From an uncultured bacterium (GTDB taxonomy: Bacteria; Omnitrophota; Omnitrophia; Omnitrophales; Aquincolibacteriaceae): 64,000 bases of DNA. Within the stretch, counting starts at the first letter, position 1, and every line of letters begins with the position of its first letter. The notes under the pieces are model-generated. The model saw only the letters and a program-made list of their open reading frames with translations, did not search any database and was not told the DNA's origin. The stretch lies in contig CAYPIR010000007.1 of assembly GCA_964410905.1 (NCBI GenBank), positions 11,773 to 75,772 on the forward strand, read 5' to 3'. Positions 1 to 39,000 of the stretch are shown piece after piece. Position numbers and translations under genes: made by a program.

Positions 1-2600
1 GTGTTTAAGGATTTGGGCGTTGATTTGCGTGATGGAAAAGAACATAAAATCGCGGAACTTGGCACGGGGATTATGCCTTTGAGTCTTTTTGAAATGACAG
101 AGGCTTTTCAAAAAATTAATCCCAAAATTAAAACGGCAGGAGTTGATATTTTTACCGCAAGAAAAATGGTGATTGACACCAAAAATAGCTTGGCGTTTTT
201 TATTGATGATGCGGGAAATCCAATAGAAATTGTTGAATTTGCTCCGACTGATACAAACGGTGTTGAGCTTCGCACGATTTATTCAAAAGGGACTACAAAT
301 GTTTATCCGGCTTTGGCGAAAATAGATGCTGGTTTTATTAATGGGACAAAAAAAATTGCCCATGAGGCGGGAGAGGAATATCGCGTCGTTGAAAATCCTA
401 CCGAAACATTTTTGCTTGATATGTCGCGGAAATTTAACATTCCTCAAGACATAACGCGATATGAGACAGGAACATCGGACTCAGCAATATTTAAAGACGC
501 TGACATCGCAACCATGTCTCATATGAAAGGTTATTTGTCCGATTTTTCAAAAGCATTGAAAGATCTTGCGCAACAAATGAAAGAGGGAGGAATTATTGTG
601 GCTTACGACGGGTATGCCAATCTTTTTCCTCTTGAAATCTGGCAGGTAAAAAATAAACACGCGGAACCGGTATTTGTCGAAAAAGATTTTTTTGCGGCGG
701 ATTTAAACGCGCAAGAAATCTTGAATGTAAATGGTAAGGTCTATCATCTTCCTCGTAGCAGTGAAGAACCGAACGAAGTCGCTACTGCCATTAGTAATTA
801 TTTTATAGGATTAGCATCGCGCAGCGAAACCCGCCAACAAGAAGAACGCAAAATCACTGGAATGACCGGCGTTGGACGAAATTTGCTTTTGCATCAATTT
901 ATGGTTTCTAACGAATTTGAAAAATGGACCGGAATCGATATTTCTCGCGGCGATTTAAAGGTGTCGGAACTTGGGACTGGAATCCTGCCGATTAGTTTTG
1001 CGGAAATGACAAATCTCCTTTGTTCCATAAATCCTAAAATCAAAACGGTTGGCGTTGACATATACAAGACGGATTTTGTAGCAATTCCTGTGGAGCATTC
1101 CGATACTCTTTATTTTGTTGATTCAAAAGGAGCGATTGGCGAGATTATGCGGATAAATAGCGATTTTTTGGTGTCGGTTTATTTAAATGAACGGACAAAA
1201 TCAAAAGAAAATATATTTGGATTTGAAAGAGAATTAAAAAAAATAGCAGGTAAAAAGTCTTTGGAGCGAACTTATAAGTTGGGTTGGCAAGATTTTGAAG
1301 TTTATTTTGACCCCGCGGAAAAATTTCTCAATTGGGCAAGCGGTAATGGAAATTTTAATAGGCAAAACGCATCTCTTTATCAAGGAGACGCGTCTTCGGA
1401 ACAATTGAAGAACTCTGATATCGTGATTATGGCGCATGTGGAAGGACATTTGAAATCGCGAGGTTTGTGGGGAAAAACTTTGCGAGAACTTGCTAGGAAT
1501 ATAAAAAGCGGCGGCGTTATTTTGAGTTATGACGAATTTGCCGGAGTAAAGAACAATTTAAATATTTGGAAAGTGAATAGTGAACATTTATTTACTCGTG
1601 TTGATAACGGATTTAAATTAGCTTCAGAATACAATCCGCCAGGGGATGCTGGTGTGCCTTCTAAATCTGTTTTGTTAGGAGACGAATCAAAAGAAACGCT
1701 TACATTTACACCTCAAGCGGAAGATTCTCTTGCGACAACTTCTCAACTAAGGCGAAATCTTTTGGATGCGTTTTCTAGACAAAACATTTCGGAATTTTTT
1801 GAAAGAGAAAAAAAAGAGGCTCGTTCCGAGACTAGAGCGAAAATAACAGGGCGGACAGATAGCGGCGACCGCAATAAAATTTTATTTCAATTTTTAACAT
1901 CCAATACATTTCGTCAAATTACAAATATTGACTTTTCTAAAGACGCCCCCAAAATCGTGGACTTTGGATTTGGAATTATGCCGTTTCATCTTCCATTCTT
2001 GAATGCTTTTTTAAAAGATCGTAATCCTTTTGCTGAAATCATTGGCATTGATCAATTTAGGGCGGATGCGATTGTTATTGATAAAACAAAACCTAATTTA
2101 TGGGCATTTATGGAAACGGTGGGAAATATCGCGGAAGTTATGGAGGTGAGTCAGCCAAACGGCGCTGACGGGCAATTTGAAATGCATCACTTTATGAAAC
2201 GTTTTCTTTTGTCGAATTTTGATGAAGAGCGACGAGAGTTTGACGCGGCATACATTGAATCTTTTAACCGAGCGAAAAATGGCGAAACTAAACTTGGTGA
2301 TATGCAAGTTATTTTAAACCCGATTGCGCATTTTCTTGAATATTCAAAGAAACGGCAAGGTGTTGAAGGCGATTTTATTCGTGCGGAGGTTGGAAGCGAA
2401 AGCTCTGAAGAATTAAAAGATGCGGATGTTATTTTGATGTCGCATGTTACTGTTCATTACACAAGAGACGGGATGAAAGAATTGATCGGCTCTGTCTTAA
2501 AACAAATGAAGCCGGGCGGAGTTGTTGTCGAATGGACTTATGGATTTGATGACGGAGGGACGGTTTATCTCTGGAAACTCGGGAGGAATGGCGAAGCGAC
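1..2600 (+). other. Three diverged tandem protein-level repeats (~300 aa each) of a SAM-MTase-like fold, at approx nt 1-690, 900-1620 and 1900-2600.
   Basis: The block ITG.TG.GRN.L..QF..SN.F....IDxS / ELGTGI.P / D..IM.HV / GG... recurs three times in the translation. Confidence 0.6.
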
Positions 2601-5600
2601 AGAATTTTCAAAAATAGCAATATATAAAAATTCCGATTTGGGAAATGTTTCTTTTGTTTGGTTTACGCCTACCCAAGTCAATGCGCTTAAAGAGACTGTA
2701 TCAGATGCAATTCCGAGAGCGGCAATTAACGCGCAAACGATAACGAATGAATGGATAAAAAGCATTCTTGATTTTACGTCGGCCGCTGAAAAGGAGAAAG
2801 CCGGCAAAGCTGATTCGCCTAGCTCTGCTCGCGATGACAAAGTTTTTTCACAGATTGAGGATCGTGAAAAAAATATCGATATTGATTTAGCGAACAAAGC
2901 GGACGAGATGTTACCTGCGGCTAAGCCTGACGAACCCGTGTCGAAAGCGGTTGAAAAATCTTCGTATGTCGAGAAGAACGCAGAGTCTTATCAAATTTTG
3001 TTTCAGGATTATTGGGACAAAAACCCAATCGCTCAAACGGATACAAAGAAACTAATGAATCGAATGTCTGTCCTGTCAAAGACTCTATCGAAACTTCTCT
3101 CAGCGCCTGATGCTATGCAAAATGCATTGCATCTCAAAAGACTGCTTGATGCAAACTTTAAAAGTAAAAAACTTCTTCCCGAAGCGGAGAAAATGATTCG
3201 CTCATTTCTTAATGTCTATGAGCTACGCAGGAACGGTGAACCAATAAATGTTGGTTATGTGATCTCGATGTATGGCGAGGCGGATAGGTTAAACGCGGAA
3301 TCTCTTGATAATTTGCTGGGCGAAGACGCTCTGGCTGAAAAAATCGCTGAATTAGATGAGTTGTATTCGGTAAATTTAAATGTTCATTACCGGTTGCTCT
3401 TAGTTGATGATGGAGAATTTAACGGCCAACGCGATAAATCAGACGAAACTTTGAGTTTTGAAATCGTGCCTTCAAATTATAGGGAAAACTTTTTACAGAA
3501 CGTTTCGAGTTGGATTAATAAAAACTTCGCTCTGAATGCGCATAAATTTTTGCACGAATTTTTTGACGAAAATAAAAACACACAATTTCGCGTGAAGTCA
3601 AAGTATGGCGGAATATCGTCTGGTGAGACTGCACTTCAAATTTTGCAAGAGCGTTTCGCGGACAAATTAAAATCGGGACAGGTAAAAGTTTTTTTTGTTG
3701 ATAAAAAACAAAAAAAACAAATCAGCGGACGGAAAGGGAGCGGTGTGATTTTGGGGATGCGTAAGGCTATAAACGACGGCGCTGATTATGTGATTTTTAC
3801 AGGTACGGATAGAACCATTCATACGGGGCAGTCTGGACTTCTTTTGTCGGATCTTGTAGCGGGAAAAACAGATGTTGTGATTGGCAGTCGACGGCTTAGC
3901 GACAGTATTGTTTATGGGCAATCAAATGGGGAAAATCGCGCGAGTTTTCTTTATAACAAATTCGCAAGATTATTTTTGCGAGCGGGAAAAATCAAAGACA
4001 CGCAGGAAGGTTTTAAAGGATTTACGCGTGATATCCTGGAACGAATTTTACCCGTTGATAATGCTTGGTATCTCGATGAGAAATTTACATATGACTATAC
4101 GTTTGATACGCATTTGCTTATGCGTGCTCGTGATGTATCTGATAAGCCGATAAAAGAAGTTTCGACCGTGTGGATTAATAACTCTCGTGCTGGAATGAGA
4201 CGGACTAATAGCGAACAGGACATGTCGTTGATAAAAAAGCGTGAATTTAAGAGACTTAAAGATTATAAGCGAGCGATTGAATCAGGAAAATACGAAAACG
4301 GCGGATTGCAAAAAGGTTCGATGGTTGATTTGAGAGGAATTGATAAGAGAGTCATATTTGTTGGAGATATTCACGGGAGAGTCGACAACTTGAACAGCGT
4401 TTTAGAAAGGAATAATAATTTTGAAGATATAGCGGACGGCAATGCGGTTTTAATTCTTACCGGAGACATCGTTCACAGCAAAGATGAATATCTTAATCGC
4501 ACGGGAAATGAAACGGAGTTTGGAGAGAATTCGTATGAGGCGATTAAACGAGTAATGGATCTTAAAATAATGTCGCCGCAAAATGTTTACTTGCTTGGAG
4601 CTGATCATGAACAAGACGCGCGGGCTGTTGGTATTCCAATCGATAAGAGGATAGTCAATCAGAGTCAGAATTATTTTGATTATCTGGAGAAGTTTTTCGG
4701 AGATAATTTTTTAAAGCAATATCGGAGGGCCATGAGCACTGCACCTATTTTGGCGATTGGCTCCAATTTTTTAGCCGCGCACGCTGGTCCGATTAAGCGG
4801 ATTAGATATGGTGATTTGCCGAATAATTTGGAGGAGTTTCTAACTTCCAGAAATGATTTGTTTGCTTCCGTAAATAACGGAATAGTCGATGACCTCATAG
4901 GTATTCACAATCGTGTTGACGTAGGTTTTGGTGAAGAGGAAGTTATCAGATTTTTTGAGCTTTTTGGAATGGATCCGTCCAAATCTATATTTATAACGGG
5001 GCATTCTCCTGAAGACCCGAAAATTCCGATTTTTCAACCTTATGACAGTAAATTAATTGTGTCGGTGGCGCAATTTGATAAATTCGCTTGGGAAGAAATT
5101 ATGCCTGACGGTGAGCTGAAAGTATTTGACATGGATTCGTCTGATGCGGAAACGGCTAAAAGTGAGCAACGTGCTAAAGATTCTTCCGCGTCTGACGGCA
5201 GTTACGCGGATAATTTGATGCGCGAGAAACAAGAACGTAAATTTTATAGCATTCCACGAAATCGCGCGGATCGCGCGAAAGGAAAAGAAAATCCTAATGT
5301 CCGTGCGCTCAACAATATTATTCGCTCGCAACTTCGTCCTTTGGCTGATGACGCGCCGGACGCGAAAATCGCCATAACCCTATTGCTTGGCGGATTTCTT
5401 AATTTAGGCGAAATGAGCAATGATGAAATAAAAGATTTTGCGGAAGTTTTGGCTAGCTTTGTTCAAGAAAAAACTGAAGAATCCATAGAAACTATTTTTG
5501 CGCGTCATTTCCCAAACTCTATGATTTTAAGCTCGGAACCTTCGTCTGTTATGGAGTTTTTTGACGCGGTTCCTACTGAAGAAGATAAGAAACGAATATT

Positions 5601-6102
5601 AAACGATGTCAAGGCTTTGCTTCTTTTAAATAGAAATTTATCATACAAATTGGTCTTTCCATTTGAAACTAATTTGAGAAATTTTAATGAAAACCTTGAG
5701 AAGTTTGCCACGGAAAACGGTATAGAAAATTTGCGATTGCGATTTTCAGTTATAGCGAGCAGACAAACACCAAAAAATTTGATGGCTCTTGCGCGCGCGC
5801 TTTCGCTTAGATATGGAAGCTCCACGGTGATTATTGGTGACGGCAAAGCTCTTTCAATGCTTGGAGATGATTTGATGCGGCCTAAAACTAAAATAATCGA
5901 AAGGCGTTTTTCGGGTCTTTCGCCGCTTGCTACCGTATCGCGCGTGAAGGCTGTGGTCTTATCTCGCGATTTTAAAGAAGATGATTTGGCGATAACTAAA
6001 AAGGGTTCTCGCTATGAATTTAATATCAAAATTCTAAGTCAAATGATGGATTCTATTGTAACCGCGATTAACGGTTTACTGAGTCTATCCAGGTCGGCGT
6101 AG
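1..6102 (+). CDS. Giant multidomain protein, 5'-truncated by the window edge (>=2033 aa). It carries three tandem class-I SAM-methyltransferase-like modules, a GT2 glycosyltransferase domain and a calcineurin-like metallophosphoesterase domain, followed by a C-terminal region of unknown function.
   Basis: The ORF is open from base 1 to the stop at 6100-6102. Motif-I-like ELGTGIMP/ELGTGILP/DFGFGIMP and post-I DIATMSHM..EGGIIV / DIVIMAHV..KSGGVIL / DVILMSHV..KPGGVVV recur three times. GT2 motifs ISMYGEADRL, LLVDDGE, GADYVIFTGTDRT and DTQEGFKGF are present. Phosphoesterase motifs VGDIHGR, LTGDIVH, GADHE, AAHAGP and ITGHSPED are present. Confidence 0.8.
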   Translation: MFKDLGVDLRDGKEHKIAELGTGIMPLSLFEMTEAFQKINPKIKTAGVDIFTARKMVIDTKNSLAFFIDDAGNPIEIVEFAPTDTNGVELRTIYSKGTTNVYPALAKIDAGFINGTKKIAHEAGEEYRVVENPTETFLLDMSRKFNIPQDITRYETGTSDSAIFKDADIATMSHMKGYLSDFSKALKDLAQQMKEGGIIVAYDGYANLFPLEIWQVKNKHAEPVFVEKDFFAADLNAQEILNVNGKVYHLPRSSEEPNEVATAISNYFIGLASRSETRQQEERKITGMTGVGRNLLLHQFMVSNEFEKWTGIDISRGDLKVSELGTGILPISFAEMTNLLCSINPKIKTVGVDIYKTDFVAIPVEHSDTLYFVDSKGAIGEIMRINSDFLVSVYLNERTKSKENIFGFERELKKIAGKKSLERTYKLGWQDFEVYFDPAEKFLNWASGNGNFNRQNASLYQGDASSEQLKNSDIVIMAHVEGHLKSRGLWGKTLRELARNIKSGGVILSYDEFAGVKNNLNIWKVNSEHLFTRVDNGFKLASEYNPPGDAGVPSKSVLLGDESKETLTFTPQAEDSLATTSQLRRNLLDAFSRQNISEFFEREKKEARSETRAKITGRTDSGDRNKILFQFLTSNTFRQITNIDFSKDAPKIVDFGFGIMPFHLPFLNAFLKDRNPFAEIIGIDQFRADAIVIDKTKPNLWAFMETVGNIAEVMEVSQPNGADGQFEMHHFMKRFLLSNFDEERREFDAAYIESFNRAKNGETKLGDMQVILNPIAHFLEYSKKRQGVEGDFIRAEVGSESSEELKDADVILMSHVTVHYTRDGMKELIGSVLKQMKPGGVVVEWTYGFDDGGTVYLWKLGRNGEATEFSKIAIYKNSDLGNVSFVWFTPTQVNALKETVSDAIPRAAINAQTITNEWIKSILDFTSAAEKEKAGKADSPSSARDDKVFSQIEDREKNIDIDLANKADEMLPAAKPDEPVSKAVEKSSYVEKNAESYQILFQDYWDKNPIAQTDTKKLMNRMSVLSKTLSKLLSAPDAMQNALHLKRLLDANFKSKKLLPEAEKMIRSFLNVYELRRNGEPINVGYVISMYGEADRLNAESLDNLLGEDALAEKIAELDELYSVNLNVHYRLLLVDDGEFNGQRDKSDETLSFEIVPSNYRENFLQNVSSWINKNFALNAHKFLHEFFDENKNTQFRVKSKYGGISSGETALQILQERFADKLKSGQVKVFFVDKKQKKQISGRKGSGVILGMRKAINDGADYVIFTGTDRTIHTGQSGLLLSDLVAGKTDVVIGSRRLSDSIVYGQSNGENRASFLYNKFARLFLRAGKIKDTQEGFKGFTRDILERILPVDNAWYLDEKFTYDYTFDTHLLMRARDVSDKPIKEVSTVWINNSRAGMRRTNSEQDMSLIKKREFKRLKDYKRAIESGKYENGGLQKGSMVDLRGIDKRVIFVGDIHGRVDNLNSVLERNNNFEDIADGNAVLILTGDIVHSKDEYLNRTGNETEFGENSYEAIKRVMDLKIMSPQNVYLLGADHEQDARAVGIPIDKRIVNQSQNYFDYLEKFFGDNFLKQYRRAMSTAPILAIGSNFLAAHAGPIKRIRYGDLPNNLEEFLTSRNDLFASVNNGIVDDLIGIHNRVDVGFGEEEVIRFFELFGMDPSKSIFITGHSPEDPKIPIFQPYDSKLIVSVAQFDKFAWEEIMPDGELKVFDMDSSDAETAKSEQRAKDSSASDGSYADNLMREKQERKFYSIPRNRADRAKGKENPNVRALNNIIRSQLRPLADDAPDAKIAITLLLGGFLNLGEMSNDEIKDFAEVLASFVQEKTEESIETIFARHFPNSMILSSEPSSVMEFFDAVPTEEDKKRILNDVKALLLLNRNLSYKLVFPFETNLRNFNENLEKFATENGIENLRLRFSVIASRQTPKNLMALARALSLRYGSSTVIIGDGKALSMLGDDLMRPKTKIIERRFSGLSPLATVSRVKAVVLSRDFKEDDLAITKKGSRYEFNIKILSQMMDSIVTAINGLLSLSRSA
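3240..4150 (+). other. GT2 (DPM1/GtrB-like) glycosyltransferase domain inside the giant protein.
   Basis: DDG, DxD-like and DTQ(E/C)GFK motifs occur in the canonical order. Confidence 0.6.
4320..5030 (+). other. Calcineurin-like metallophosphoesterase domain inside the giant protein.
   Basis: GDIHG...GDxVH...G(A)DHE...AHAGP...GHSP metal-ligand motif series. Confidence 0.6.
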
Positions 6103-7096: not shown

Positions 7097-8197
7097 ATGT
7101 CTGAGCGAGCGGAACAAGCAAAGGCTTATCAAGCGATTCGCCGCAAAATTTCAATTTTCAGTCTTTTTTTATCTCCCGCAATTCTTTTAATTTTACTCGT
7201 AAGCGGCTGGACTTTTTTGATGCGACAAAACTCTATTGCTTTATCCGGCGATAATGAATGGCTTGTTGTGGCGAATTATTTTTTTCTCTTTACGATTTTT
7301 CAACTTATTTTTGAATTGCCGCTTTCATACTATTCTTCGTTTTCACTAGAACATAAATTTAAACTTTCCAACCAAACTTTTTTGGCGTGGGCAAAAGAAA
7401 CGCTGAAAAAAATAACGCTTTCATTTTTTCTTTCTCTCGTGCTTATTGAAACACTTTATTTTTTTATCCGCCAATTCCCGAATGTTTGGTGGATTTTGGC
7501 ATGGTGCGGTTACGCTTTCGTTAGTTATGTTATGGGAAAAGTTTTTCCTGTTTTTATTGTGCCCCTTTTTTATAAATACAGTGATTTGAAAGACGATTTG
7601 TTGAAGCGGAAAATTTTTGCGCTTGCCGAGCGTTTCAAAATGCCAATAAAAAATATTTACTCAATTAATTTAAGTTTGACTACCAAAAAGGCGAACGCCG
7701 CGTTTATGGGTTTAGGCAAAACAAAGAGAATCGTTTTGAGCGATACTTTGATTGAAAATTTTACGCATGAGGAAATTGAAATGGTTTTGGCGCACGAAAT
7801 TGGACATTTTAAAAATCATGATGTCTGGCGTTTTTTGACGCTTGGGCTCATTGCCTCGTTTGTTGTTTTTTATGTAGGATTTTTGACAATGAACGCCGTA
7901 GCCGTAAAATTTTCAATACAAACCATTTCTGACATTGCGGGTTTGCCGCTTCTTTTTTTGATTTTTTGTATTATGAATTTAATGGGGACTCCAATTTTGA
8001 ATGGATACTCGAGAAGGAGAGAATACGCGGCGGATGCGTTTGCTCTTTTGGCCACAAAGAACCTTGGAGTTTTTATTTCGTGTATGAAAAAACTAGAATC
8101 TCAAAATCTTGCCGATCCGGAGCCGCCAGTTTGGTATGAATGGTTTTTTTACGATCATCCGTCAATTCCTAAACGTATCGCGAGGGCAAAAAAATGA
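7097..8197 (+). CDS. Integral-membrane M48-family zinc metallopeptidase (Ste24/HtpX-like).
   Basis: Multiple TM helices and an HEIGH (HEXXH) motif with a downstream E. The C-terminal motif is ...YDHPS. Confidence 0.7.
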   Translation: MSERAEQAKAYQAIRRKISIFSLFLSPAILLILLVSGWTFLMRQNSIALSGDNEWLVVANYFFLFTIFQLIFELPLSYYSSFSLEHKFKLSNQTFLAWAKETLKKITLSFFLSLVLIETLYFFIRQFPNVWWILAWCGYAFVSYVMGKVFPVFIVPLFYKYSDLKDDLLKRKIFALAERFKMPIKNIYSINLSLTTKKANAAFMGLGKTKRIVLSDTLIENFTHEEIEMVLAHEIGHFKNHDVWRFLTLGLIASFVVFYVGFLTMNAVAVKFSIQTISDIAGLPLLFLIFCIMNLMGTPILNGYSRRREYAADAFALLATKNLGVFISCMKKLESQNLADPEPPVWYEWFFYDHPSIPKRIARAKK

Positions 8198-9303
8198 ATT
8201 TTAGAAAAAAGTTTTTTGTTTTTTTTGTGTTCTTTACCGCGGCTCTTTGCCAAAGCGTTTTTGCTGAAGACTCTGATTATGCGAAAGAGACAATGGAACG
8301 GCGTCAGCAGACAGAAATAGACGGATTTCTTTATGGCTATACAAAAGATATACCAACGATGACTTTGTCCATACAGTTTTTCAATGACGCGGTAAAGTTT
8401 TTCGAGAAAAATGAGTTTGATCTTTCGCGTGAAGCGCTGCAACAAGCAATAGAGCTAGAGCCGCGAAATTCTCTTGCTTTCGAACTTTTGGGGGATATTG
8501 AAAATCTTCATCAAAAATTTGATTTGGCAGAGCATTATTACAAGAAAAGTTATCTGGTTAGTGCTTCATCGCGCATTAAAGACAAAATAGGAAAACTGCA
8601 AAAAGAGCGTTCGGTGGAGGATAACTTTGATACGGATGAAGACGAACTCTTTTTAATTAAATATCGCCGCGGCGAGCAAAGCTATGACAGTTCCGAACTG
8701 AAAGGTTTTTTGCGTGATGCCTACAGACAGGTGTCGCAGGATTTTTCGTTTTATTTTAATCATAAAACCACAGTGCTTTTTTATACGGGTGAGCAGTTTC
8801 ATGAGGTAACTGGAAAAGAGAAATGGGTAACAGGACTTTATGACGGTAAAATTCGCTTGCCTGCTTATAAACAAACATTTAACCGCAAAGATTTACAGGC
8901 TGTTATAGTCCATGAACTAACACACGCGTTCGTAACTGCTTTAAGCGCTGGACGTGCTCCTGTTTGGCTGCAAGAAGGGCTCGCGCAGTATGAGCAAAAT
9001 AAAGTTGTGCCGATTGATACTATAGTTTTTGATTCCGCGGTCAGAATAAACGGACTTTTATCGTTTAATAGACTTTTTTTTGATAAGTTTGATGGCGAAA
9101 AAGTTACCCCTCTTGAAATTTCGCTTTTTTATCAAGAATCGTATAGATTTGTCAGATATTTGATCGAACGTTATAAAATGTATTACATAAAAGAATTACT
9201 CGGCAAAATCAAAGACGAAAAAACCATTGATCAAGCGATAGAAGAATCGTTTTTAATTAGCGTTTCGCAATTGGAGAAAGAATGGCTGGCAGCCCTAAAA
9301 TAA
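8194..9303 (+). CDS. Secreted TPR-containing protein with a peptidase MA-like (Peptidase_MA_2) domain.
   Basis: Signal peptide. TPR-like helices. HELTHAF...WLQEGLAQYEQ. Confidence 0.55.
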   Translation: MNFRKKFFVFFVFFTAALCQSVFAEDSDYAKETMERRQQTEIDGFLYGYTKDIPTMTLSIQFFNDAVKFFEKNEFDLSREALQQAIELEPRNSLAFELLGDIENLHQKFDLAEHYYKKSYLVSASSRIKDKIGKLQKERSVEDNFDTDEDELFLIKYRRGEQSYDSSELKGFLRDAYRQVSQDFSFYFNHKTTVLFYTGEQFHEVTGKEKWVTGLYDGKIRLPAYKQTFNRKDLQAVIVHELTHAFVTALSAGRAPVWLQEGLAQYEQNKVVPIDTIVFDSAVRINGLLSFNRLFFDKFDGEKVTPLEISLFYQESYRFVRYLIERYKMYYIKELLGKIKDEKTIDQAIEESFLISVSQLEKEWLAALK

Positions 9304-9800
9304 AAAAGCGAACAGAGCTTCAATCCTTATCAACTTTACCAGTTTTGAAAAAGTTGTCTGCCTCCGACCGCCGATATTTTGAAAATGAATTTCTCAAGAA
9401 AATTCCTTTTACTCAATCTCAAATTAGACAAATTTTGGAATGGCTTTGGGATTTAGCCAAGAGGGAAGACGCGAGTTTTTGTAAGTTAACCGAAAAGTTG
9501 GAATTTTTTAAAAATCTTGATGATGTGGAAGATTTGAGATTTAAAGCCGAAACCGTTTTCAGCCGCGTACGTCTTGCTAGGTTTCCCGAAAGCGCTAGCC
9601 GAATGGAAAAATTTGAGCAATTTAAGCGTAAGCATTTCGGCGGTATGAAAAAAGTTCGTATTGAGCCTGTTTCTGGATTTGACGAACCCGGCCTTCGATT
9701 GACAATTCAAGTGAATAATTCAGAAGAAATCAAAACGCTTGCCGTTCTGCTGCGAAAAAAAATCCCGTCGTTGAAGACGCTGTTTGAAATGACTATATAA
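9282..9800 (+). CDS. Hypothetical protein.
   Basis: 172-aa ORF in the operonic + strand series that overlaps the upstream gene by 22 nt. No recognisable motif. Confidence 0.4.
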   Translation: MAGSPKIKKRTELQSLSTLPVLKKLSASDRRYFENEFLKKIPFTQSQIRQILEWLWDLAKREDASFCKLTEKLEFFKNLDDVEDLRFKAETVFSRVRLARFPESASRMEKFEQFKRKHFGGMKKVRIEPVSGFDEPGLRLTIQVNNSEEIKTLAVLLRKKIPSLKTLFEMTI

Positions 9801-9820
9801 TTCCTATACAATAGCCTCTT

Positions 9821-11722
9821 ATGACCACGACAAAAAAAACTCTCATCATTGCGCTTGCTATAGGGTTGTTTTTTTCTTATACCCTCTACGCCGAAGACGC
9901 AACGGTTACCGCGACTTTGGAACCGACCTCTGTTCAAGTAGGGCAGCAAGCAACCATGAGCATTCAAGTATCCGGGCAGACCCAAAATGTTCAGACGCCT
10001 CGTCCTCCGTCCTTGAGCGACATTGATATTTTTTATAGCGGTCGATCTTCTCGTATTTCAATGGTAAACGGAGTAACTGCTGCGAGTTTAAATTTTATTT
10101 ATGTTTTGGTTCCAAAACGAGAAGGTGATATTTCAGTCCCGCCATTCGATGTCTCAGTTGACAACAAAATCATAAAAACACCGGAATTTAATTTAAAAGT
10201 CCGCGGCGTAAAAGCGATGCCGCAGGCAGCCAATCCTAATCCTTACGCAAACACACCGGCAGCAAACACCGCGCCATCTCTTCAATCGGTATCGCTTGGC
10301 GCTGGCGAAGACAATAATGTTTTTGCTCGCGTTTGGACGGATAAAAAAACGCTTTATCAAAATGAGCAGCTGCTTTTAATTTATTCGCTTTATACGCGTT
10401 ACGATACGCGATATGAAGGCTTTGACAAAGAAGCTGAGACTAGCGGGTTTTGGATAGAAGAGTTCCCAATTGGGCCGGATGTCCCTAGAGAAACTACTAC
10501 GGTAAACGGCAAGCGGTATGTAAAAGCCGATGTTCGCAAAATGGCGCTTTTTCCAACTGCACCGGGAAATTACACGATACAACCTGGCAGTTTGAAAGTA
10601 TCGGTTTTGGAAGAAAAACGCGACAGCAAAAGTTTATTTGACGAGTTCTTTAGCGACAATTTTTTTAATGGCAATCCAATGTTTTCGCGCAGGCAAAACC
10701 GTTCGCTTAATATGCCCGCAATACAGTTGGAAGTCCTGCCTTTGCCGGAAGTTGCCCGCCCGGCGAGTTTTCAAGGCGCGGTCGGACAATTTAAGTTAAC
10801 TGCCGCTATAGACCACGCCAGAGTTAAACAAAATGAACCTGTAACATTGAAAATCACCATAGAAGGCGAAGGCAATATTGAGACGCTTTCGAGACCGAAA
10901 GTCCCAGAACTTACGGGGTTTAAAACATATGACGCCGATACCAATTCAAAACTTTTTCAAAACGCGAATGTTGTCGGCGGAAGCAAAACTTTTGAAGTGG
11001 TGTTTATCCCTAAAAATGAAGGGCAGTCATTTATTCCGCCGCTTGAGTTTAGTTATTTCGACCCGCGTCTTGCGAAGTATAAGGTTTTGCAAACTCCCAA
11101 TTTCCCCATAACAGTAGAAAAAAATGATGTAACTTTCCAATTGCCCGATTCTGTTGAAAACGTGTCGCTTTTTCAAAAGAAAGTTCGTTCTGAGACAAAA
11201 GATATACGATTTATCGATGAAAAAATAACAAGTCTCAAATGGCTTCGAGTCGTGGATTTAAGTTTTTTAATTTTGTTATGGGTAGACATTTTTCTCGTTT
11301 TAGTTTTTCTGGTGCTCTGGAATCGCTCGCGCCGAGAAAAAGTTTTTTCAAAAGATGTAGCGCTTAAAAGACGCAAAACAGCGCGTTTGACGGCGGACGC
11401 CAATATCAAAAATCTCAAAAACTTGGCGAGCAAATCGAATGCGGAATCGTTGACGAAATTTTTTGTTGAGGTGGAACGCTCTCTAACTCAATATCTTACG
11501 GATAAGTGGAATTTGTCGGTTTATGGAGTAACGCGACAGGAGTTGGAAGATATTTTGACGCGGCACTTTGACGCGGATGATGCGCACTTGAAAGAAGTTC
11601 TTGAGCTGTTTCGGCTTTGCGATGAATCAAGATTCGGGAAGTGTTCTCTTCCTCAATCTTCAAAAAAAATCGCACTCAGAATTTTTCAAGAAACGGTAAA
11701 CAAAATAGAAAGGATGCGATGA
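9821..11722 (+). CDS. batD: BatD-like protein.
   Basis: Signal peptide, a long extracytoplasmic domain, a single C-terminal TM helix and a roughly 100-aa cytoplasmic tail. Size and architecture match BatD, and a TPR+SH3 BatE-like gene follows immediately. Confidence 0.5.
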   Translation: MTTTKKTLIIALAIGLFFSYTLYAEDATVTATLEPTSVQVGQQATMSIQVSGQTQNVQTPRPPSLSDIDIFYSGRSSRISMVNGVTAASLNFIYVLVPKREGDISVPPFDVSVDNKIIKTPEFNLKVRGVKAMPQAANPNPYANTPAANTAPSLQSVSLGAGEDNNVFARVWTDKKTLYQNEQLLLIYSLYTRYDTRYEGFDKEAETSGFWIEEFPIGPDVPRETTTVNGKRYVKADVRKMALFPTAPGNYTIQPGSLKVSVLEEKRDSKSLFDEFFSDNFFNGNPMFSRRQNRSLNMPAIQLEVLPLPEVARPASFQGAVGQFKLTAAIDHARVKQNEPVTLKITIEGEGNIETLSRPKVPELTGFKTYDADTNSKLFQNANVVGGSKTFEVVFIPKNEGQSFIPPLEFSYFDPRLAKYKVLQTPNFPITVEKNDVTFQLPDSVENVSLFQKKVRSETKDIRFIDEKITSLKWLRVVDLSFLILLWVDIFLVLVFLVLWNRSRREKVFSKDVALKRRKTARLTADANIKNLKNLASKSNAESLTKFFVEVERSLTQYLTDKWNLSVYGVTRQELEDILTRHFDADDAHLKEVLELFRLCDESRFGKCSLPQSSKKIALRIFQETVNKIERMR

Positions 11723-12474
11723 TGAGAAAAATAGTTTTATTTTGCGTCTTTTCTATTCTGCTCGCTTTGCCCGCTTTGGCTCAGGATGTTCAAGAGTCGT
11801 TTCATAAAGCGAATGAATTTTATCGCGCGGGAGATTACGCGAAGGCTGAAAAAATTTATAGTAATTTGATTGAATTAAATCCCAATGTCGCGTCTTTCTA
11901 TTATGATTTAGCGAATACGCAAGTCCGGCTTGGAAAATTGAGTTCTGCGATTTTGAATTATGAGAAAACGCTTTTGCTTGCTCCGCGAAATAAAGACGCG
12001 CGGGATAATTTGAAATACGCGCGCGGACTTTTGGAATACAGTGTTGAAGACACGCGTAATTGGTATGTTAGGACAGGTGAAGCGGTTTTGAAATTTGCTA
12101 CAAAAAAAGAAATTTTGACAGCGGAGCTTTTGGCATTATTTGTTTTTTTTATTAATGGAATGCTGTTTTTTTTGACAAGACGAAATGCTTTTTGGAGTTC
12201 ATGGCAAAAAGTTTGGCTGGTTGTTCTTTTGCTTGTTTCCATAGTTGTTTTGGCAAAATATTTGCAGAGCGACAGACTTCGCGAAGCCGTTGTGGTTCAG
12301 AAGGAATGCGACGCGAGATTCGGTCCTTCAGTCCGCGATTCCGCGGCGTTTAAAATGGGCGAGGGAATAAAGGTTTTTGTGGTTGATAGAAGAGAAGATT
12401 GGAGCAGGGTTCTTTTGACTAATGGCGAAAGTGGTTGGGTTAACGATAATGATATAGCGGAGGTTGTGTTGTGA
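11719..12474 (+). CDS. batE: BatE-like TPR plus SH3-like domain membrane protein. The start is taken at the ATG overlapping the batD stop. The ORF track starts it at 11641 inside batD.
   Basis: Signal peptide and TPR repeats. A TM helix follows. The C-terminal SH3b-like segment reads [32 protein letters not shown] lies upstream of the ATG at 11719. Confidence 0.5.
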
Positions 12475-23744: not shown

Positions 23745-25733
23745 ATGATGAACTTTTTTTCATTTGGTAAAAATCCTAGTAATTTTCGACGCGATAATTA
23801 TTTTTTAGACACTATGCCTCTATTTCAAGCTCTCACTTCTAATGAGCAATCGCAAATCGAACGCGCCGCGCGCCTCATTGGTTTTCATCGCGGCGATAGG
23901 GTCTATAATGAAGGCGATAAAGCGGATGCTTTTTATATTATAGTTTCAGGACGATTTCGTCTTTTTACTCACGATTATACAAACAAAAAAGAAACCAATA
24001 TTTTATATTTTTATAGAGGCGAGCACTTTGGGGAAACATCGCTTCTTACGGGAAACCCGCATAGCGCTTCGGTCGAAGCTGCCACTGACGCTACTGTTTT
24101 GAAAATAGAAGCCGCCAAGTTTCAAAAACTTTTAAAAGAAATTCCATCTCTTTCTATTTATTTAAGTCGCGCATTAGGCCGTCATCTGACACGCGAAGAA
24201 CTGGGTTACAGCAGCCACCGCAGAGAAGTTCGCATCGCTTCCGTTTTTACTTCCGGTGCGTCTGCTGAAGTTTTTGCTTTTTTAAAAGACTTCGCAAAGA
24301 CCATCGGAAACGAAACTAAACACAAAGTGCTTTTACTTAACCTGTTTTCTAACACGCAAGATTTTTCAAAACAAATAAATTCGAAATCTGGGTTTGACTT
24401 TGAAACTATGGACCCATCTCACAAAGCATTAATTCATTCACAGATAGAAAAAAACGAAGACGACGTGGAGTTTATTAATTTTCAAAATAATGACGCGCTT
24501 GAAAATGAAGACGAAAAATTCGCGGCATTTCTAACTTATCTGACCTATAAATATGACTATCTTATTTTGCTCTTGCCGGATAAAAAAACAAAAGTTGTCT
24601 CTAAAGCGTTGAGTTATTCCGACCGCGCGTATCTTTTGACAAACCACCAAATAAACGCGGTGAAGTTTATTTTGTCCAAAACAAAAATGTTAATGGACGA
24701 CTTTGGGTTTAATAAAAAAGAAATAAAAGCATTAGTGGAATCGGCGGCTGACGAGTTTCAGATATTTTGTAGCCTGCCTGACTTGAAATTCCAGCGGTAT
24801 AAATATGAAAAATCATTGGTGTTTCTTGCCAAAGATTGGGCGGAGCGGCTTGTTGGATTGGCGTTAGGGAGCGGTGCGGCGTATGGGTTGGCGCACATAG
24901 GCGTTTTGCGTGTAATCGAAGAAGAAAAAATTCCGATAGACATAATATCGGGCACAAGCATTGGCGCGCTTATCGGCGTATTTTGGTCCGCTGGCTACGA
25001 TTCATATGAAATAGAAAAAATAGCCAAATCCATAAATAAAAAAACTGCATTTTTCAAGCTTGTAGGTTTTATGGATTTTTCCAATCCTTACAAAGGTTTT
25101 TTAAAAGGGAAACAGATTATGCGGTTTTTAGAAAGCTATTTAGGTCATAAGACTTTCAAAGATCTGCAAACTCCACTGAAAATTTCGGCAACGAATCTGC
25201 TGACTGCTGAAGAAAAAATATTTGATGACGGCGACTTGCTGTCCGCCGTCCGCGCTTCAATTTCAATCCCGGGATTTTTCCGCCCGGTTAAACATGAGGG
25301 AAGCTATCTTATAGATGGCGGCATTGTAGACCCTTTGCCCGTGCGCGTGCTTTCGAATATGGGCGCAAGAAAAATTTTAGCGGTTAATGTATTGCCGTCT
25401 CCTCAGGATTTGCTGGAACGCAATAATCTTATTCGTCAGCGTTTTCACGCTGAATTTCAGAAACGAAAACATTTGCAAAAAATGCTGATGAAATGGAAAG
25501 ACGGATTTTTTAGAAATTATGAGGATAATATTTTTAATGTGTTAATGAATTCAATTATGTACACGGAATTTGAAGTCGCGAGAATGGAAGGCGAAGAGGC
25601 GGATGTTTTTATAAACGCTGCGACACTGGACGCGAATTGGGCGGAATTTTTTTCTGCGGATAAGTTTATTGACGAGGGAATAAAAAAAACTCGGGAGCGA
25701 CTACCCGAGATAAAACAGTTAATAGATGAATGA
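23745..25733 (+). CDS. Cyclic-nucleotide-binding domain fused to a patatin-like phospholipase (NTE-like). The start may instead be the ATG at 23814.
   Basis: N-terminal cNMP-binding fold (FGETSLLTGNPHSASVEA). Patatin GSGAAYG oxyanion motif, GTSIG lipase serine and DGG (LIDGGIVDP). Confidence 0.8.
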   Translation: MMNFFSFGKNPSNFRRDNYFLDTMPLFQALTSNEQSQIERAARLIGFHRGDRVYNEGDKADAFYIIVSGRFRLFTHDYTNKKETNILYFYRGEHFGETSLLTGNPHSASVEAATDATVLKIEAAKFQKLLKEIPSLSIYLSRALGRHLTREELGYSSHRREVRIASVFTSGASAEVFAFLKDFAKTIGNETKHKVLLLNLFSNTQDFSKQINSKSGFDFETMDPSHKALIHSQIEKNEDDVEFINFQNNDALENEDEKFAAFLTYLTYKYDYLILLLPDKKTKVVSKALSYSDRAYLLTNHQINAVKFILSKTKMLMDDFGFNKKEIKALVESAADEFQIFCSLPDLKFQRYKYEKSLVFLAKDWAERLVGLALGSGAAYGLAHIGVLRVIEEEKIPIDIISGTSIGALIGVFWSAGYDSYEIEKIAKSINKKTAFFKLVGFMDFSNPYKGFLKGKQIMRFLESYLGHKTFKDLQTPLKISATNLLTAEEKIFDDGDLLSAVRASISIPGFFRPVKHEGSYLIDGGIVDPLPVRVLSNMGARKILAVNVLPSPQDLLERNNLIRQRFHAEFQKRKHLQKMLMKWKDGFFRNYEDNIFNVLMNSIMYTEFEVARMEGEEADVFINAATLDANWAEFFSADKFIDEGIKKTRERLPEIKQLIDE

Positions 25734-27450: not shown

Positions 27451-27523
27451 GGGCCTGTAGCTCAGTTGGTAGAGCGCTGCATTCGCATTGCAGAGGTCAG
27501 GAGTTCAACTCTCCTCAGGTCCA
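27451..27523 (+). tRNA. tRNA-Ala (anticodon CGC).
   Basis: Cloverleaf GGGCCTG/CAGGTCC acceptor with G3:U70, D-arm GCTCAGTTGGTAGAGC, anticodon loop TTCGCAT, T-arm AGGAGTTCAACTCTCCT and discriminator A. No encoded CCA. Confidence 0.85.
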
Positions 27524-36034: not shown

Positions 36035-39000
36035 ATGATTAACGCTCAGACAGGAAAATTGAAATCTTGGATTAGAACAATCGCATTTTTTACCGTATTT
36101 ATTTTTACATTTACAAGCGTTGTTTGGGACGGCGGAATAAATAAAGCCTACGCAGCCGCGGCCCAGCCGAGACTTGATTCTCGAGTTTCTACCACAGTTC
36201 TTACTTCCATAATCGACCGCTCTGATCTTCCCGAAACATACGGAACCATAAAAAATTCATATCGCGGAGCAGGCGACCAAGTTTTCATTCACGTTCAAGA
36301 CGCACATATCAACGAAGAGGCACAGCTTAATATCGCTAATATTCTCAAATGGTTTTCTGAAAAACACCAAATGAGGCTTGTTAACATCGAAGGCGCGGAA
36401 GGCGAACTTAACGCTAAGACGCTTACTGCTATTTCTGACAAAGCGGCAAGAAAAGATGTCTCGGGATATTTTTTGCGTGAAGGCAGAATGGCTGGAGCGG
36501 ATTATTTTGCAATCGTTGATAAGCCGGAGCTGACCCTTTACGGAGCGGAAGACAATGAGCTTTATGAAGAAAACCGTAAGGCATATGTCAACGCGCTTGA
36601 ATTTAAAGATAAAGACGAAAAAGTTTTGTCTTCTTTGCGTTCTATTATGGAGAAGGTTGGGAGATTCATTTTTTCTGACGAAGCGCGTGAACTTTATCGC
36701 CGTCGTGTCGACTTTCAAGACGGCGGAGCGCAGCTAGTTGCTTATGTTCGTTACCTTGTTAGCATTGCAGAAAAAAATCAAATGGACTTGTCCGCATACA
36801 GCGGAATGAAATCTCTTCTGCAGCTTGTAGATCTCGAAAAGAAGGTTAATTTTGACAAAGCCGAAAGCGAAGTCGATAGATTAGTTGAACATCTCAAGAA
36901 AACTTTGCAAAGCGACAAACTTTCTCGATTTCTCACCAATACCGTTCATTTCCGAATGAAGAGAATGAATCGTGCTGATTACTATTCATATCTTCAAAGC
37001 GAAATTGACGGACTTATCGATGCCGAGACTGTCAAAACGCAATATTTAAATGCCATCGCCTACATTGAATATATGAAACTTTATGATTTAATCGGCATTG
37101 CAATTTTTGATGAAATTGAATTTTTGGAGAGAACCATAAAAGCAAAAATTCTCACGACTCCCGAAGCCCAAAAATTAGACCAGCTTTATCGAGTTTGGGA
37201 CATTATGCAAAAAATGTTCGACTTTTCGCTTACAAAACAAGATGCCGAATATTTTTACTCCAACCAAACCGCGTTTTCCTCTAACAATTTTGTGGAATTT
37301 CTTACCCCGTTGATGAAGGAACATCGTTTTTCTGATTCTATACCGGCAAACGCTTCGATTTTGGATACCGATTTATCAAAGGTTGAAAAGTTTTATCAAC
37401 TCGCGCTTGAGCGTGATATCGTAATTATTGAACGCGCGATTGAAAAGACAATGAGGAGCGGGCAAAAAGTCTCCGCGATTGTAACCGGTGGATTTCACAC
37501 ACCAGGGATTGAAGCCGCGCTTAAAGAAAAAGGGTTTTCATATTTAGTTGTTACGCCAAGAATTTCCAAGTCGATTGATCAGAAAAAAGAAAGCAAACTT
37601 TATGACGAAGCGCTCCGTCAAACTCCGCTTCCTATAGAAAAAGTTTTGTCTGAAACTCTTACTTTGCAATCGGGGACGGTAAACGATCCACGGTTTCAAC
37701 TTTCAGCGAAGCATTTTCTTGATGTTCCAGAAATGGTTGATCAAGCCGCGACTTTGATGGCGGCTAAATCTATTTTGAATGCTGTGGCGGAGGGTAAGTC
37801 GCCGGCGGCTCGCCTTGAGGAATTGCGTAGAACCGCAGCCGACGCGAACTCGCCCAAATTGATGAAAATTTTAAATTCTTTCGAAGTGGGGACGATTAAC
37901 GGAAAACAAGTTCCTGTGTATCCAAACATAAACGGAACATATTTGGCATTTTTCTCTGAAACAACTAAGCCTTCCGAGGTGTCTCCTAAATATCGTTCTT
38001 CAATTCAAAATCTAAAATTGTCGGACGATAGTTTTCTCTCTATGCGTGTTGTTGCTCCCGAACAAATTTCTGGGATTAGCCGTTCCGAAACGCGCCAGTT
38101 GACTGATGGGACTTCAGCTCTGAAATTGGATGCGTTTGAAGCTGAGGGCATTAAAGTTGAAGCGGGAAAAATTGAACGGGGAGTATTTCAAAAGGAGCTT
38201 ATTGCTAAATCCGGTTATGCGGGCTATGGATTTGTTGTCCCGGATTTGACGCGGGCAAGCGACAAGGCTTTAAGAGATATTTCCGCGGCATTTTCCGATT
38301 CTAAAATAAATGACAAATTGAAAGCGGTGAGTTCTGCTTTTTCAGAAGCAGGCGTAGACCCTATTGCTGTAAGTTCTCAGGCGGTGTTGAGACTTCTTAG
38401 TGAGAATACAGCCGATGAAATTGCTCAAAAGGTCAGCCTTTTGCGTTTATTAAATCGCTCAATAACTACTTCCAATGTTGGTTATTCTGTTGAAAAATTG
38501 CAGGAACTTGCGGCTGAAGCGCAAGCCCAAAAACAAGCAGCCCAAGAAACAGCGGTTGCCGAACTCGCCAAGACTAAAGTTGAAGTGCCAACAGTAGCGG
38601 GTGGCGTTTCTGCTGAAATGATTGAACAGCGCATAAATGCGTTTCTTGGTAAATACAAAACAAGAAATGTAAATGGTAAGGAAATTGAAAACAGCGAAAA
38701 AGTTTTAAATATTATGCGCCTAGCACTTCGTGGAATTTTTGCTGACCCCAAAAACAGTGAAAATAATGCGGCTGCTAATAGTGTTTTTACGCGTTTTGAA
38801 GAACAAATTAAAGTCGCGAGAGATATAACTGAGGAAAGTCTTAATCAAGTTACTATGGGTGCTGGTAAAACAACTATTTTGCAGCTGGGTTTGCAATATC
38901 TCTACGACAAGGGATTTAAACAATCTGAGGGCAAAGGGGTAGTGCTTGTAACTGCTAATGACAAGTTGTCTGAACGCGATGCCGAAAAATCGGCAGCAAT

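Follow-up and report, generated by a model that had tools for sequence, protein, structure and literature searches.

Giant multi-enzyme proteins of the Omnitrophota are known from sequence alone, and two questions arise about them: does such a protein work as one chain or as several fragments, and at which face of the membrane does it act? Both are raised by a gene whose 3′ end occupies nucleotides 1–6102 of a 64,000-nucleotide stretch of DNA (the window, below) from an uncultured bacterium of this phylum (NCBI GenBank assembly GCA_964410905.1, contig CAYPIR010000007.1, positions 11,773 to 75,772, forward strand). An initial annotation of the window had described the end of a giant open reading frame (ORF) encoding three methyltransferase-like modules, a family GT2 glycosyltransferase, a phosphoesterase and a tail of unknown sequence, and had proposed a megaenzyme that modifies glycoconjugates or lipids. 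Our analysis of the complete product, P0001, points with a probability of roughly 0.6 to a representative of medium length among the Omnitrophota long multi-enzyme proteins, which would be exported by Sec, would act outside the cytoplasm of its producer and would perhaps be cut at motifs lying at module junctions. This family context had been missed before.

Within the window the gene is a single frame (frame 1), which runs without interruption from the first base to a TAG stop at 6100–6102 and comprises 2,033 codons. A search of 5.8e9 proteins retrieved the full product of 2,662 amino acids (aa), 100% identical across all 2,033 residues encoded in the window. It is recorded both on an NCBI contig (113,962 bp) and in a separate Logan assembly of run SRR11845625. 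The start codon is an ATG 629 codons (1,887 nt) upstream of the window, preceded by stop codons in the Logan contig, and the complete gene measures 7,989 nt. The long upstream frame postulated in the initial annotation is thus real; a short gene starting close by is refuted. The gene is large, not enormous, and falls outside the giant class of 10–150 thousand aa. Its product is composed, in order, of a signal-like segment, a head of ~450 aa, three methyltransferase-like modules, a GT2 unit, a PPP-family phosphatase domain and an orphan C-terminal domain.

The N-terminus of P0001, MKNKIKKTISLFLISTFVWTQIVDATA followed by LP beyond the likely cut, is lysine-rich and contains 16 hydrophobic residues, with A-T-A before the cut. 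This is the only hydrophobic segment of the protein, which has one cysteine in 2,662 aa. Because the start is signal-like, no later membrane segment follows, cysteine is nearly absent and the relatives of the head are mostly extracytoplasmic proteins or toxins, we read P0001 as a putatively exported protein.

The head occupies P0001 aa ~45–500, upstream of the window. It was identified in 14 fetched proteins, N-terminal every time, and an alignment of heads yielded 15 further carriers, none with a Pfam domain over that region; a signal-like hydrophobic segment precedes 23 of 25 heads. In an AlphaFold2 (AF2) model (predicted local distance difference test, pLDDT, 73.9; predicted template modelling score, pTM, 0.65) the head has the alpha/beta fold of the TIKI/TraB/erythromycin-esterase type. 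Its relatives by fold (Bcr136, Bcr135, a TraB-family protein, EreC, HopBA1 and RRSP) belong to the TIKI superfamily, and most known members of this fold class either reside outside the cytoplasm or are toxins that are secreted. Four residues are invariant in the head family (H75, E103, R437 and H464). Both motifs were located in 22 of 25 members, and in these 22 the His and the Glu stand 28 residues apart, a spacing that also separates H85 and E113 of Bcr135 and H3902 and E3930 of RRSP (PMC6254334). Besides this pair, the head shares with the TIKI superfamily (Tiki, TraB/PrgY, GumN, EreA-C/Bcr135/136, ChaN, HopBA1, RRSP of MARTX and PMT C1-C2) a G-x-x-H motif that holds a second His. It differs from that superfamily in a helical insertion of ~300 aa that splits the fold, in its first acidic position (D in most members, as in IQDAH, but N in P0001) and in the near lack of Pfam matches: among ten members compared with the Pfam families of the TIKI superfamily, one matched PF04187 (ChaN) weakly, at E 0.0011, and P0001 matched none.

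With a profile of the head alignment, the helical insertion (P0001 aa ~200–325) gave weak matches, at E 3e-4 to 1e-2, to the EF-hand pairs of centrin/calmodulin, which were judged probably compositional. The N-terminal head alignment was too diverged to serve as a query in pattern scans. The closest head relatives, P0166, P0168, P0169 and P0171 (31–36% identical), are complete proteins of ~1,000 aa, each built of a head (which, like that of P0001, has the IQNAH variant), a stretch of ~400 aa of no assigned sequence family and a terminal ..SA. They resemble a chassis that carries no enzyme cargo.

The same head domain recurs (E 3e-28) at aa 65–515 of the other giant ORF of the window, which spans 36035–59689 and encodes 7,884 aa:

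36227..37579, + strand: TIKI/TraB-like head of the other giant ORF, with HVQDAH, IEGAEG and VTGGFHTPGI

Just after this head lie divergent SecA_DEAD, SecA_PP_bind and P-loop_SecA domains (38489–40405, aa 819–1457), a feature also described in Omnitrophota giants, and for the rest of the protein (~6,400 aa) no Pfam match was obtained at E ≤ 1e-4. The two giant genes had been taken for different types. They are of the same kind, because they have in common the head domain, the RSExR junction motif and the [AS]-A carboxy end, and judged by these marks they are one framework with different cargo.

Copies of the junction motif in the window are located as follows:

820..834, + strand: RSETR, at the junction of modules 1 and 2
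1822..1836, + strand: RSETR, at the junction of modules 2 and 3, with codons unlike those of the first copy
5158..5172, + strand: KSEQR, a relaxed copy between the phosphatase and the C-terminal region
38081–38095 and 59075–59089: two RSExR copies in the other giant ORF

The 179 fetched proteins contain 105 copies of R-S-E-x-R, where 6.9 would be expected and 100 shuffles gave at most 13; the set was picked by homology to P0001 and includes near-duplicate cluster members (~80 copies without those), and the motif was noticed post hoc. The copies, up to 22 per protein (22 in P0068, 12 in P0003 and 9 in P0004; also present in P0031, P0005 and P0148), are spaced 200–600 aa apart. Their flanks are unconserved, so that the motif, an invariant pentapeptide marking the borders of modules, stands in otherwise variable linkers. 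None of 75 copies lies within a recognised domain match (these matches cover 13% of the residues), and several are separated by 4–30 aa from the edge of a domain. The idea of a DNA repeat as the source of the motif was rejected, since codons vary from copy to copy. A strict link between motif and head was also rejected, several head proteins being without the motif; because P0068 has 22 copies and no head, the motif is independent of a head in cis. We regard RSExR as a candidate processing or modification site.

The N-terminus of P0068 (7,560 aa), MAAFSRRAFLTGLG, resembles a twin-arginine (Tat) signal and is not followed by a TIKI-like head.

At the carboxy end, P0001 finishes in -R-S-A (6091–6099) and the other giant ORF in -I-A-A (59681–59686). 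An [AS]-A end is found in none of the 24 other ORFs of the window and in 46 of 167 family proteins, against 1.2% expected (e.g. ..LRSA, ..ILTAA and ..VLIAA). It is present even on short stand-alone GT2 and PPP relatives, and may be a sorting or recognition signal.

The organism belongs to the Omnitrophota. LepA encoded in the window is 85–89% identical to LepA of many Candidatus Omnitrophota metagenome-assembled genomes and ~60% identical to that of the next phyla. A phmmer search of 1.84e9 representative proteins gave 569 matches, of which the best 150 were listed; the relatives of the P0001 modules belong, by source naming, to Omnitrophota, with one Endomicrobium. Many are 2,000–7,800 aa long and carry other cargo, e.g. 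NUDIX, GNAT, HD, kinase, HPr and M50. Proteins of 4,000–7,800 aa contain modules with 32–47% identity to the GT2 and PPP modules of P0001; the GT unit is present in 93 of the 150 best phmmer proteins, often in 2–3 copies per protein, and PPP modules in 60 of 152 locally mapped proteins (the 150 listed, P0002 and the other giant ORF of the window). These matches show the head, GT2 and PPP modules to be shuffled among many Omnitrophota proteins of 2–8 thousand aa. Of the domains whose joint order the initial annotation proposed to search for, GT2 and PPP recur in Omnitrophota long proteins, and the methyltransferase-like module was found in no other protein among the best 150 of the 569 matches.

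Omnitrophota long proteins have been described as multi-enzyme arrays (glycosyltransferases, methyltransferases, hydrolases etc.), mostly targeted by a signal peptide and/or to the membrane (10.1101/2023.11.21.568195; 10.64898/2026.06.07.730766), in catalogues that begin at 10 or 30 thousand aa. Their cleavage has been suspected, and West-Roberts et al. (2023, 10.1101/2023.11.21.568195) state that their analysis was blocked by the absence of known cleavage points. A term search of both preprints found no TraB/TIKI-like head, RSExR motif or [AS]-A end. P0001 shares with these giants (the ‘Archaeovorin’ type of West-Roberts et al. 2023 and the ‘multi-enzyme metabolic cluster’ of Nielsen & Lui 2026) the phylum and the array of cytoplasm-type enzyme domains behind an N-terminal targeting signal. 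In contrast to them it has only 2.66 thousand aa, one hydrophobic segment instead of many membrane helices, a GT2 where the papers stress GT1/GT5, and none of the SecA-like domains reported in Omnitrophota giant proteins.

The enzyme cargo of P0001 is encoded in the window by the following parts:

1..858, + strand: methyltransferase-like module 1 (the last 286 of ~315 aa; its first ~29 aa lie upstream of the window), with ELGTGIMP 55–78, GVD 139–147, DADIATMSH 496–522 and MKEGGIIV 577–600
859..1875, + strand: methyltransferase-like module 2, with ELGTGILP 967–990, GVD 1051–1059, NSDIVIMAH 1411–1437 and IKSGGVIL 1501–1524
1876..2880, + strand: methyltransferase-like module 3, with DFGFGIMP 1960–1983, GID 2044–2052, DADVILMSH 2419–2445 and MKPGGVVV 2506–2529
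2881..3087, + strand: charged low-complexity linker from module 3 to the GT2 unit
3088..4320, + strand: GT2 (GT-A) unit of the DPMS/ALG5/GtrB type, beginning with a helical lead-in, with beta1 VGYVISMYGE, LVDDG 3400–3414, FTGTDRT (DXD position) 3796–3816, IGSRR 3880–3894, DTQEGFKGF 3997–4023 (window aa 1333–1341) and YTFDTH 4096–4113
4321..5118, + strand: PPP-family metallophosphatase domain, with GDIHG 4363–4377, GDIVH 4462–4476, GADHE 4597–4611, AHAGP 4777–4791 and GHSP 4999–5010
5119..6099, + strand: C-terminal ~330 aa, an acidic/serine-rich linker and then the orphan domain, ending ...SLSRSA before the stop at 6100–6102

The three methyltransferase-like modules (window aa 1–286, 287–625 and 626–960) match one another with blastp E 7e-30 to 2e-18 and 26–33% identity, and the complete P0001 contains exactly three. 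Each has kept an [ED]-x-G-x-G loop and, 28 residues further on, a G-[VI]-D strand, as well as the motif II Asp and a K-x-G-G-[IV] strand; the motif II region reads D-A-D-I, N-S-D-I and D-A-D-V in modules 1, 2 and 3, respectively. The residues expected to bind S-adenosylmethionine (SAM) that the initial annotation had singled out for checking (the acidic ones of motifs I and II) are retained in every copy, as is an acidic residue at the end of beta2. After the G-V-D strand there is an insertion of 74–80 aa, beta-rich in the model of module 2 (~75 aa there).

Compared with Pfam, the whole fragment matched PF13489 (33.8 bits; cut-off 27), PF08242 (33.9; 30) and PF08241 (33.6; 21.2), and the families matched by the three-module part were exclusively those of methyltransferases. 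Single modules scored below the cut-offs (E 7e-4 to 3e-2). Nearly all matches in profile searches of the PDB were SAM methyltransferases (E 0.013–0.8), and scores improved without the insertion, on removal of which the G-V-D strand aligns with beta2 of YcgJ and ToxA/XrdM. The AF2 model of module 2 is of low confidence (pLDDT 53, pTM 0.54), and with it Foldseek found no match in the PDB at E ≤ 1e-3. The evidence for a methyltransferase fold is concordant and, for any single copy, weak; at this strength the description of three class-I methyltransferase-like modules of ~300 aa is upheld.

The suggestion that the modules arose by recent internal duplication is not. At the DNA level they are alike only in the motif I and motif III stretches (74–79% over 28–47 nt), and tandem repeat detection on the DNA found none across the modules. 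On this comparison a recent tandem duplication was rejected, and the triplication is old because the copies are only 26–33% identical as proteins and have no DNA likeness beyond the two short stretches. When the alignment of the three modules was used to search a word index, the same module turned up nowhere else (this tool apparently omits the cluster of the query itself for alignment queries, and the absence of P0001 from its output is uninformative), and a scan of JGI metagenomes with a spliced module alignment, in which one pattern was valid, found none.

Searches of the PDB with single sequences from the GT2/PPP region returned Symfoil and chaperonin matches, which were spurious, and profiles of the two families were used instead. 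The GT2 profile (the P0001 domain and 23 stand-alone relatives) matched dolichol-monophosphate mannose synthase (DPMS, 5mlz) at E 2.7e-11 and ArnC at E 2e-3, in agreement with the DPM1/GtrB-like GT2 recognised initially. The P0001 GT2 alone scored 20.7–21.2 bits with Pfam Glycos_transf_2, under the cut-off of 23.3, and PF00535 was matched by 10 of the 24 aligned family members at E ≤ 1e-3 (best 1.3e-10). The lead-in and beta1 always accompany the core, which makes the unit bigger than first estimated. It also occurs as stand-alone proteins of 300–500 aa, two of them with a GtrA_DPMS_TM membrane domain.

With DPMS, ALG5, GtrB and ArnC the P0001 GT2 shares the GT-A core and the D-D-G, [ST]-D, I-G-S-R, D-T-Q-x-G-F-K and F-D-T-E-like motifs. 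Its motifs had been called intact, and this holds for DTQEGFKGF, LVDDG, IGSRR and FDT but not for the DXD position, which reads G-T-D: the second Asp, invariant in the family, is kept, and the first is lost, as it is in three other members. Further differences from these enzymes are a ~70-aa insertion past D-D-G, the lack of a membrane or amphipathic C-terminal part and the location inside a multi-domain, putatively exported protein. Hydropathy revealed no membrane segment for a polyprenyl-phosphate acceptor in P0001 after residue 27.

As for the phosphatase domain, Pfam Metallophos (PF00149) matched P0001 with 37.7 bits (cut-off 21.5), and a PPP profile (P0001 and 20 short relatives) reached E 9e-17 to 1e-10 with the catalytic subunits of BSU1, calcineurin, PP1 and PP5; the calcineurin-like phosphoesterase of the initial annotation is confirmed, with its GDIHG, GDIVH, GADHE and GHSP motifs in place. 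P0001 holds every residue that is invariant in the 21-member family alignment. As in PPP-family phosphatases (PP1, calcineurin, PP5 and BSU1; bacterial PrpA/ApaH-like enzymes), motifs I–V are present in order. The domain differs from them in motif II, which is G-D-x-V-H (GDIVH) without D-R-G, in motif V, which is G-H-S-P, and in motif III, which is A-D-H-E (an N to D change, found also in P0067) as opposed to G-N-H-D in most relatives.

The sole further match of the first search was P0002, a signal-peptide-bearing protein of 2,219 aa known from Logan only. It carries a ROK domain and, like P0001, the PPP module together with its lead-in, G-x-Q-x-G-x-x-V-D-L-R-G. P0002 comes from a different, G+C-rich organism, and the PPP module therefore travels beyond the Omnitrophota.

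For the C-terminal 330 aa no relative was found by Pfam, by the PDB, by phmmer on the family set or with a profile of the closest chassis proteins, and the tail of unknown sequence is still without a detectable relative.

In the reading that we favour, P0001 would be exported by Sec through a signal peptide at its N-terminus and would act at the surface of its producer, or else inside or on the outside of an attached cell, be it host or prey. Cutting at RSExR may divide it into separate enzymes, which on release would methylate, glycosylate and dephosphorylate their targets. MARTX and other modular secreted toxins are comparable, being long exported chains of several unrelated enzyme modules that include a TIKI-fold domain, with modules swapped among family members. 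Unlike MARTX, P0001 shows no RTX repeats, cysteine protease domain or type I secretion signal; the TIKI-fold domain is a conserved head in its family and not cargo, and delivery to a target cell is here purely inferred.

Several points weigh against such an exported enzyme array. Enzymes of cytoplasmic type lying outside the cell are a recognised puzzle: SAM, nucleoside diphosphate (NDP) sugars and phosphoprotein substrates are cytoplasmic, and export would require either the cytoplasm of a target cell or new chemistry. With G-T-D at the DXD position of the GT2 and A-D-H-E as PPP motif III, activity is not assured. The signal peptide was judged by eye and by hydropathy only, no secretion-system genes were found within the window near the gene, and cleavage at RSExR is a prediction. 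The link of this motif to the head is loose, as it is abundant in the head-less P0068 and P0031 and absent from some head proteins.

In an alternative that we consider unlikely, P0001 is a megaenzyme anchored at its N-terminus, facing the cytoplasm and serving an envelope pathway of the cell itself: the GT2 would load sugar on polyprenyl phosphate, and the other modules would tailor the resulting glycolipid or glycoconjugate. All three enzyme types require cytoplasmic cofactors, and the GT2 profile is nearest to DPMS and ArnC, which are polyprenyl-phosphate enzymes at the cytoplasmic face. The membrane domain of two stand-alone GT2 relatives (GtrA/DPMS) and the PlsC-type acyltransferase encoded by the next downstream gene also fit, and among the long proteins catalogued for Omnitrophota, close to half are interpreted as anchored in the membrane with their bulk in the cytoplasm. 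However, the K-rich start with its short, moderately hydrophobic stretch of 16 residues and its A-T-A fits a cleavable signal, and the positive-inside rule puts the bulk of the protein outside. There is no second membrane segment to keep a polyprenyl-phosphate enzyme at the bilayer. The structural relatives of the head are largely periplasmic, surface or toxin proteins, the cysteine content is minimal, and GT2 and PPP modules swap freely among unrelated cargo sets, unlike the parts of a fixed pathway. Of the initial proposal, the choice of an enzyme over an adhesin stands, but a cytoplasmic megaenzyme is doubtful in view of the signal-like start, the single cysteine and the fold class of the head.

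Less likely still, the modules could be catalytically dead relics that act as binding or scaffold domains of a surface protein. The decay of the GT2 DXD to G-T-D would agree with this, as would a PPP motif III that is not G-N-H-D/E, a motif II without the D-R-G arginine, and methyltransferase-like modules that have a 75–80-aa insertion and, in the searches made, no relatives outside P0001. Yet, despite ~70% divergence, none of the three modules has lost its [ED]-x-G-x-G loop, the acidic residue that follows beta2 or the residues of motifs II and III. All invariant PPP residues are present and the D-H-E variant recurs in P0067; the invariant Asp of the GT2 DXD is kept, and the first Asp varies in other members too.

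An assembly chimera, or separate genes fused through sequencing error, is very improbable: P0001 forms a protein cluster of one member and pattern scans with it found no ortholog in GTDB representatives or JGI metagenomes, but the identical 2,662-aa product was recovered from the NCBI contig and from the independent Logan assembly, base composition is uniform across the region, and both ends of the protein (signal and head; [AS]-A) match the family framework.

The P0001 gene is followed by genes encoding the PlsC-type acyltransferase and then an M48 peptidase; no terminator-like site was found 3′ of it. The neighbours, all on the same strand, are ordinary bacterial genes and encode M48/MA peptidases, BatD, TPR/SH3 proteins, TrpB, TrpA, an M16 peptidase, Rpe, LepA, signal peptidase I, SPOR proteins, NadE, ArgS, MiaA and an amidase. 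A Bat-like cluster (8194–12474), composed of genes for an MA-superfamily peptidase with TPR, a 172-aa ORF, BatD and a TPR/SH3 protein, lies directly 3′ of the genes for the M48 peptidase and the acyltransferase. A 662-aa protein encoded at 23745–25733 combines a cyclic-nucleotide-binding domain with a patatin-like phospholipase. The sole RNA gene identified in the window (Rfam, ARAGORN) is tRNA-Ala (CGC) at 27451–27523.

An exported P0001 that may be cut at its junction motifs leads to a broader proposal, which we put forward as a long shot. The long and giant proteins of the Omnitrophota could be polyproteins built on one chassis, with a signal and a TIKI-fold hydrolase head, modules separated by RSExR and an x-[AS]-A end; RSExR would mark the sites of cleavage, to be performed either by the head or by a protease acting in trans, and the freed enzymes would act on an attached host or prey. 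If this is true, P0001, with 2.7 thousand aa and a single signal, would be the smallest tractable model for testing it. It is a small and clean case, in which five modules can be recognised behind one putative signal for export and no further membrane segment is present. The three marks found across the family, namely the TIKI-fold head with its catalytic residues, RSExR at module borders and the carboxy-terminal [AS]-A, offer testable handles on the processing and sorting of Omnitrophota long proteins.

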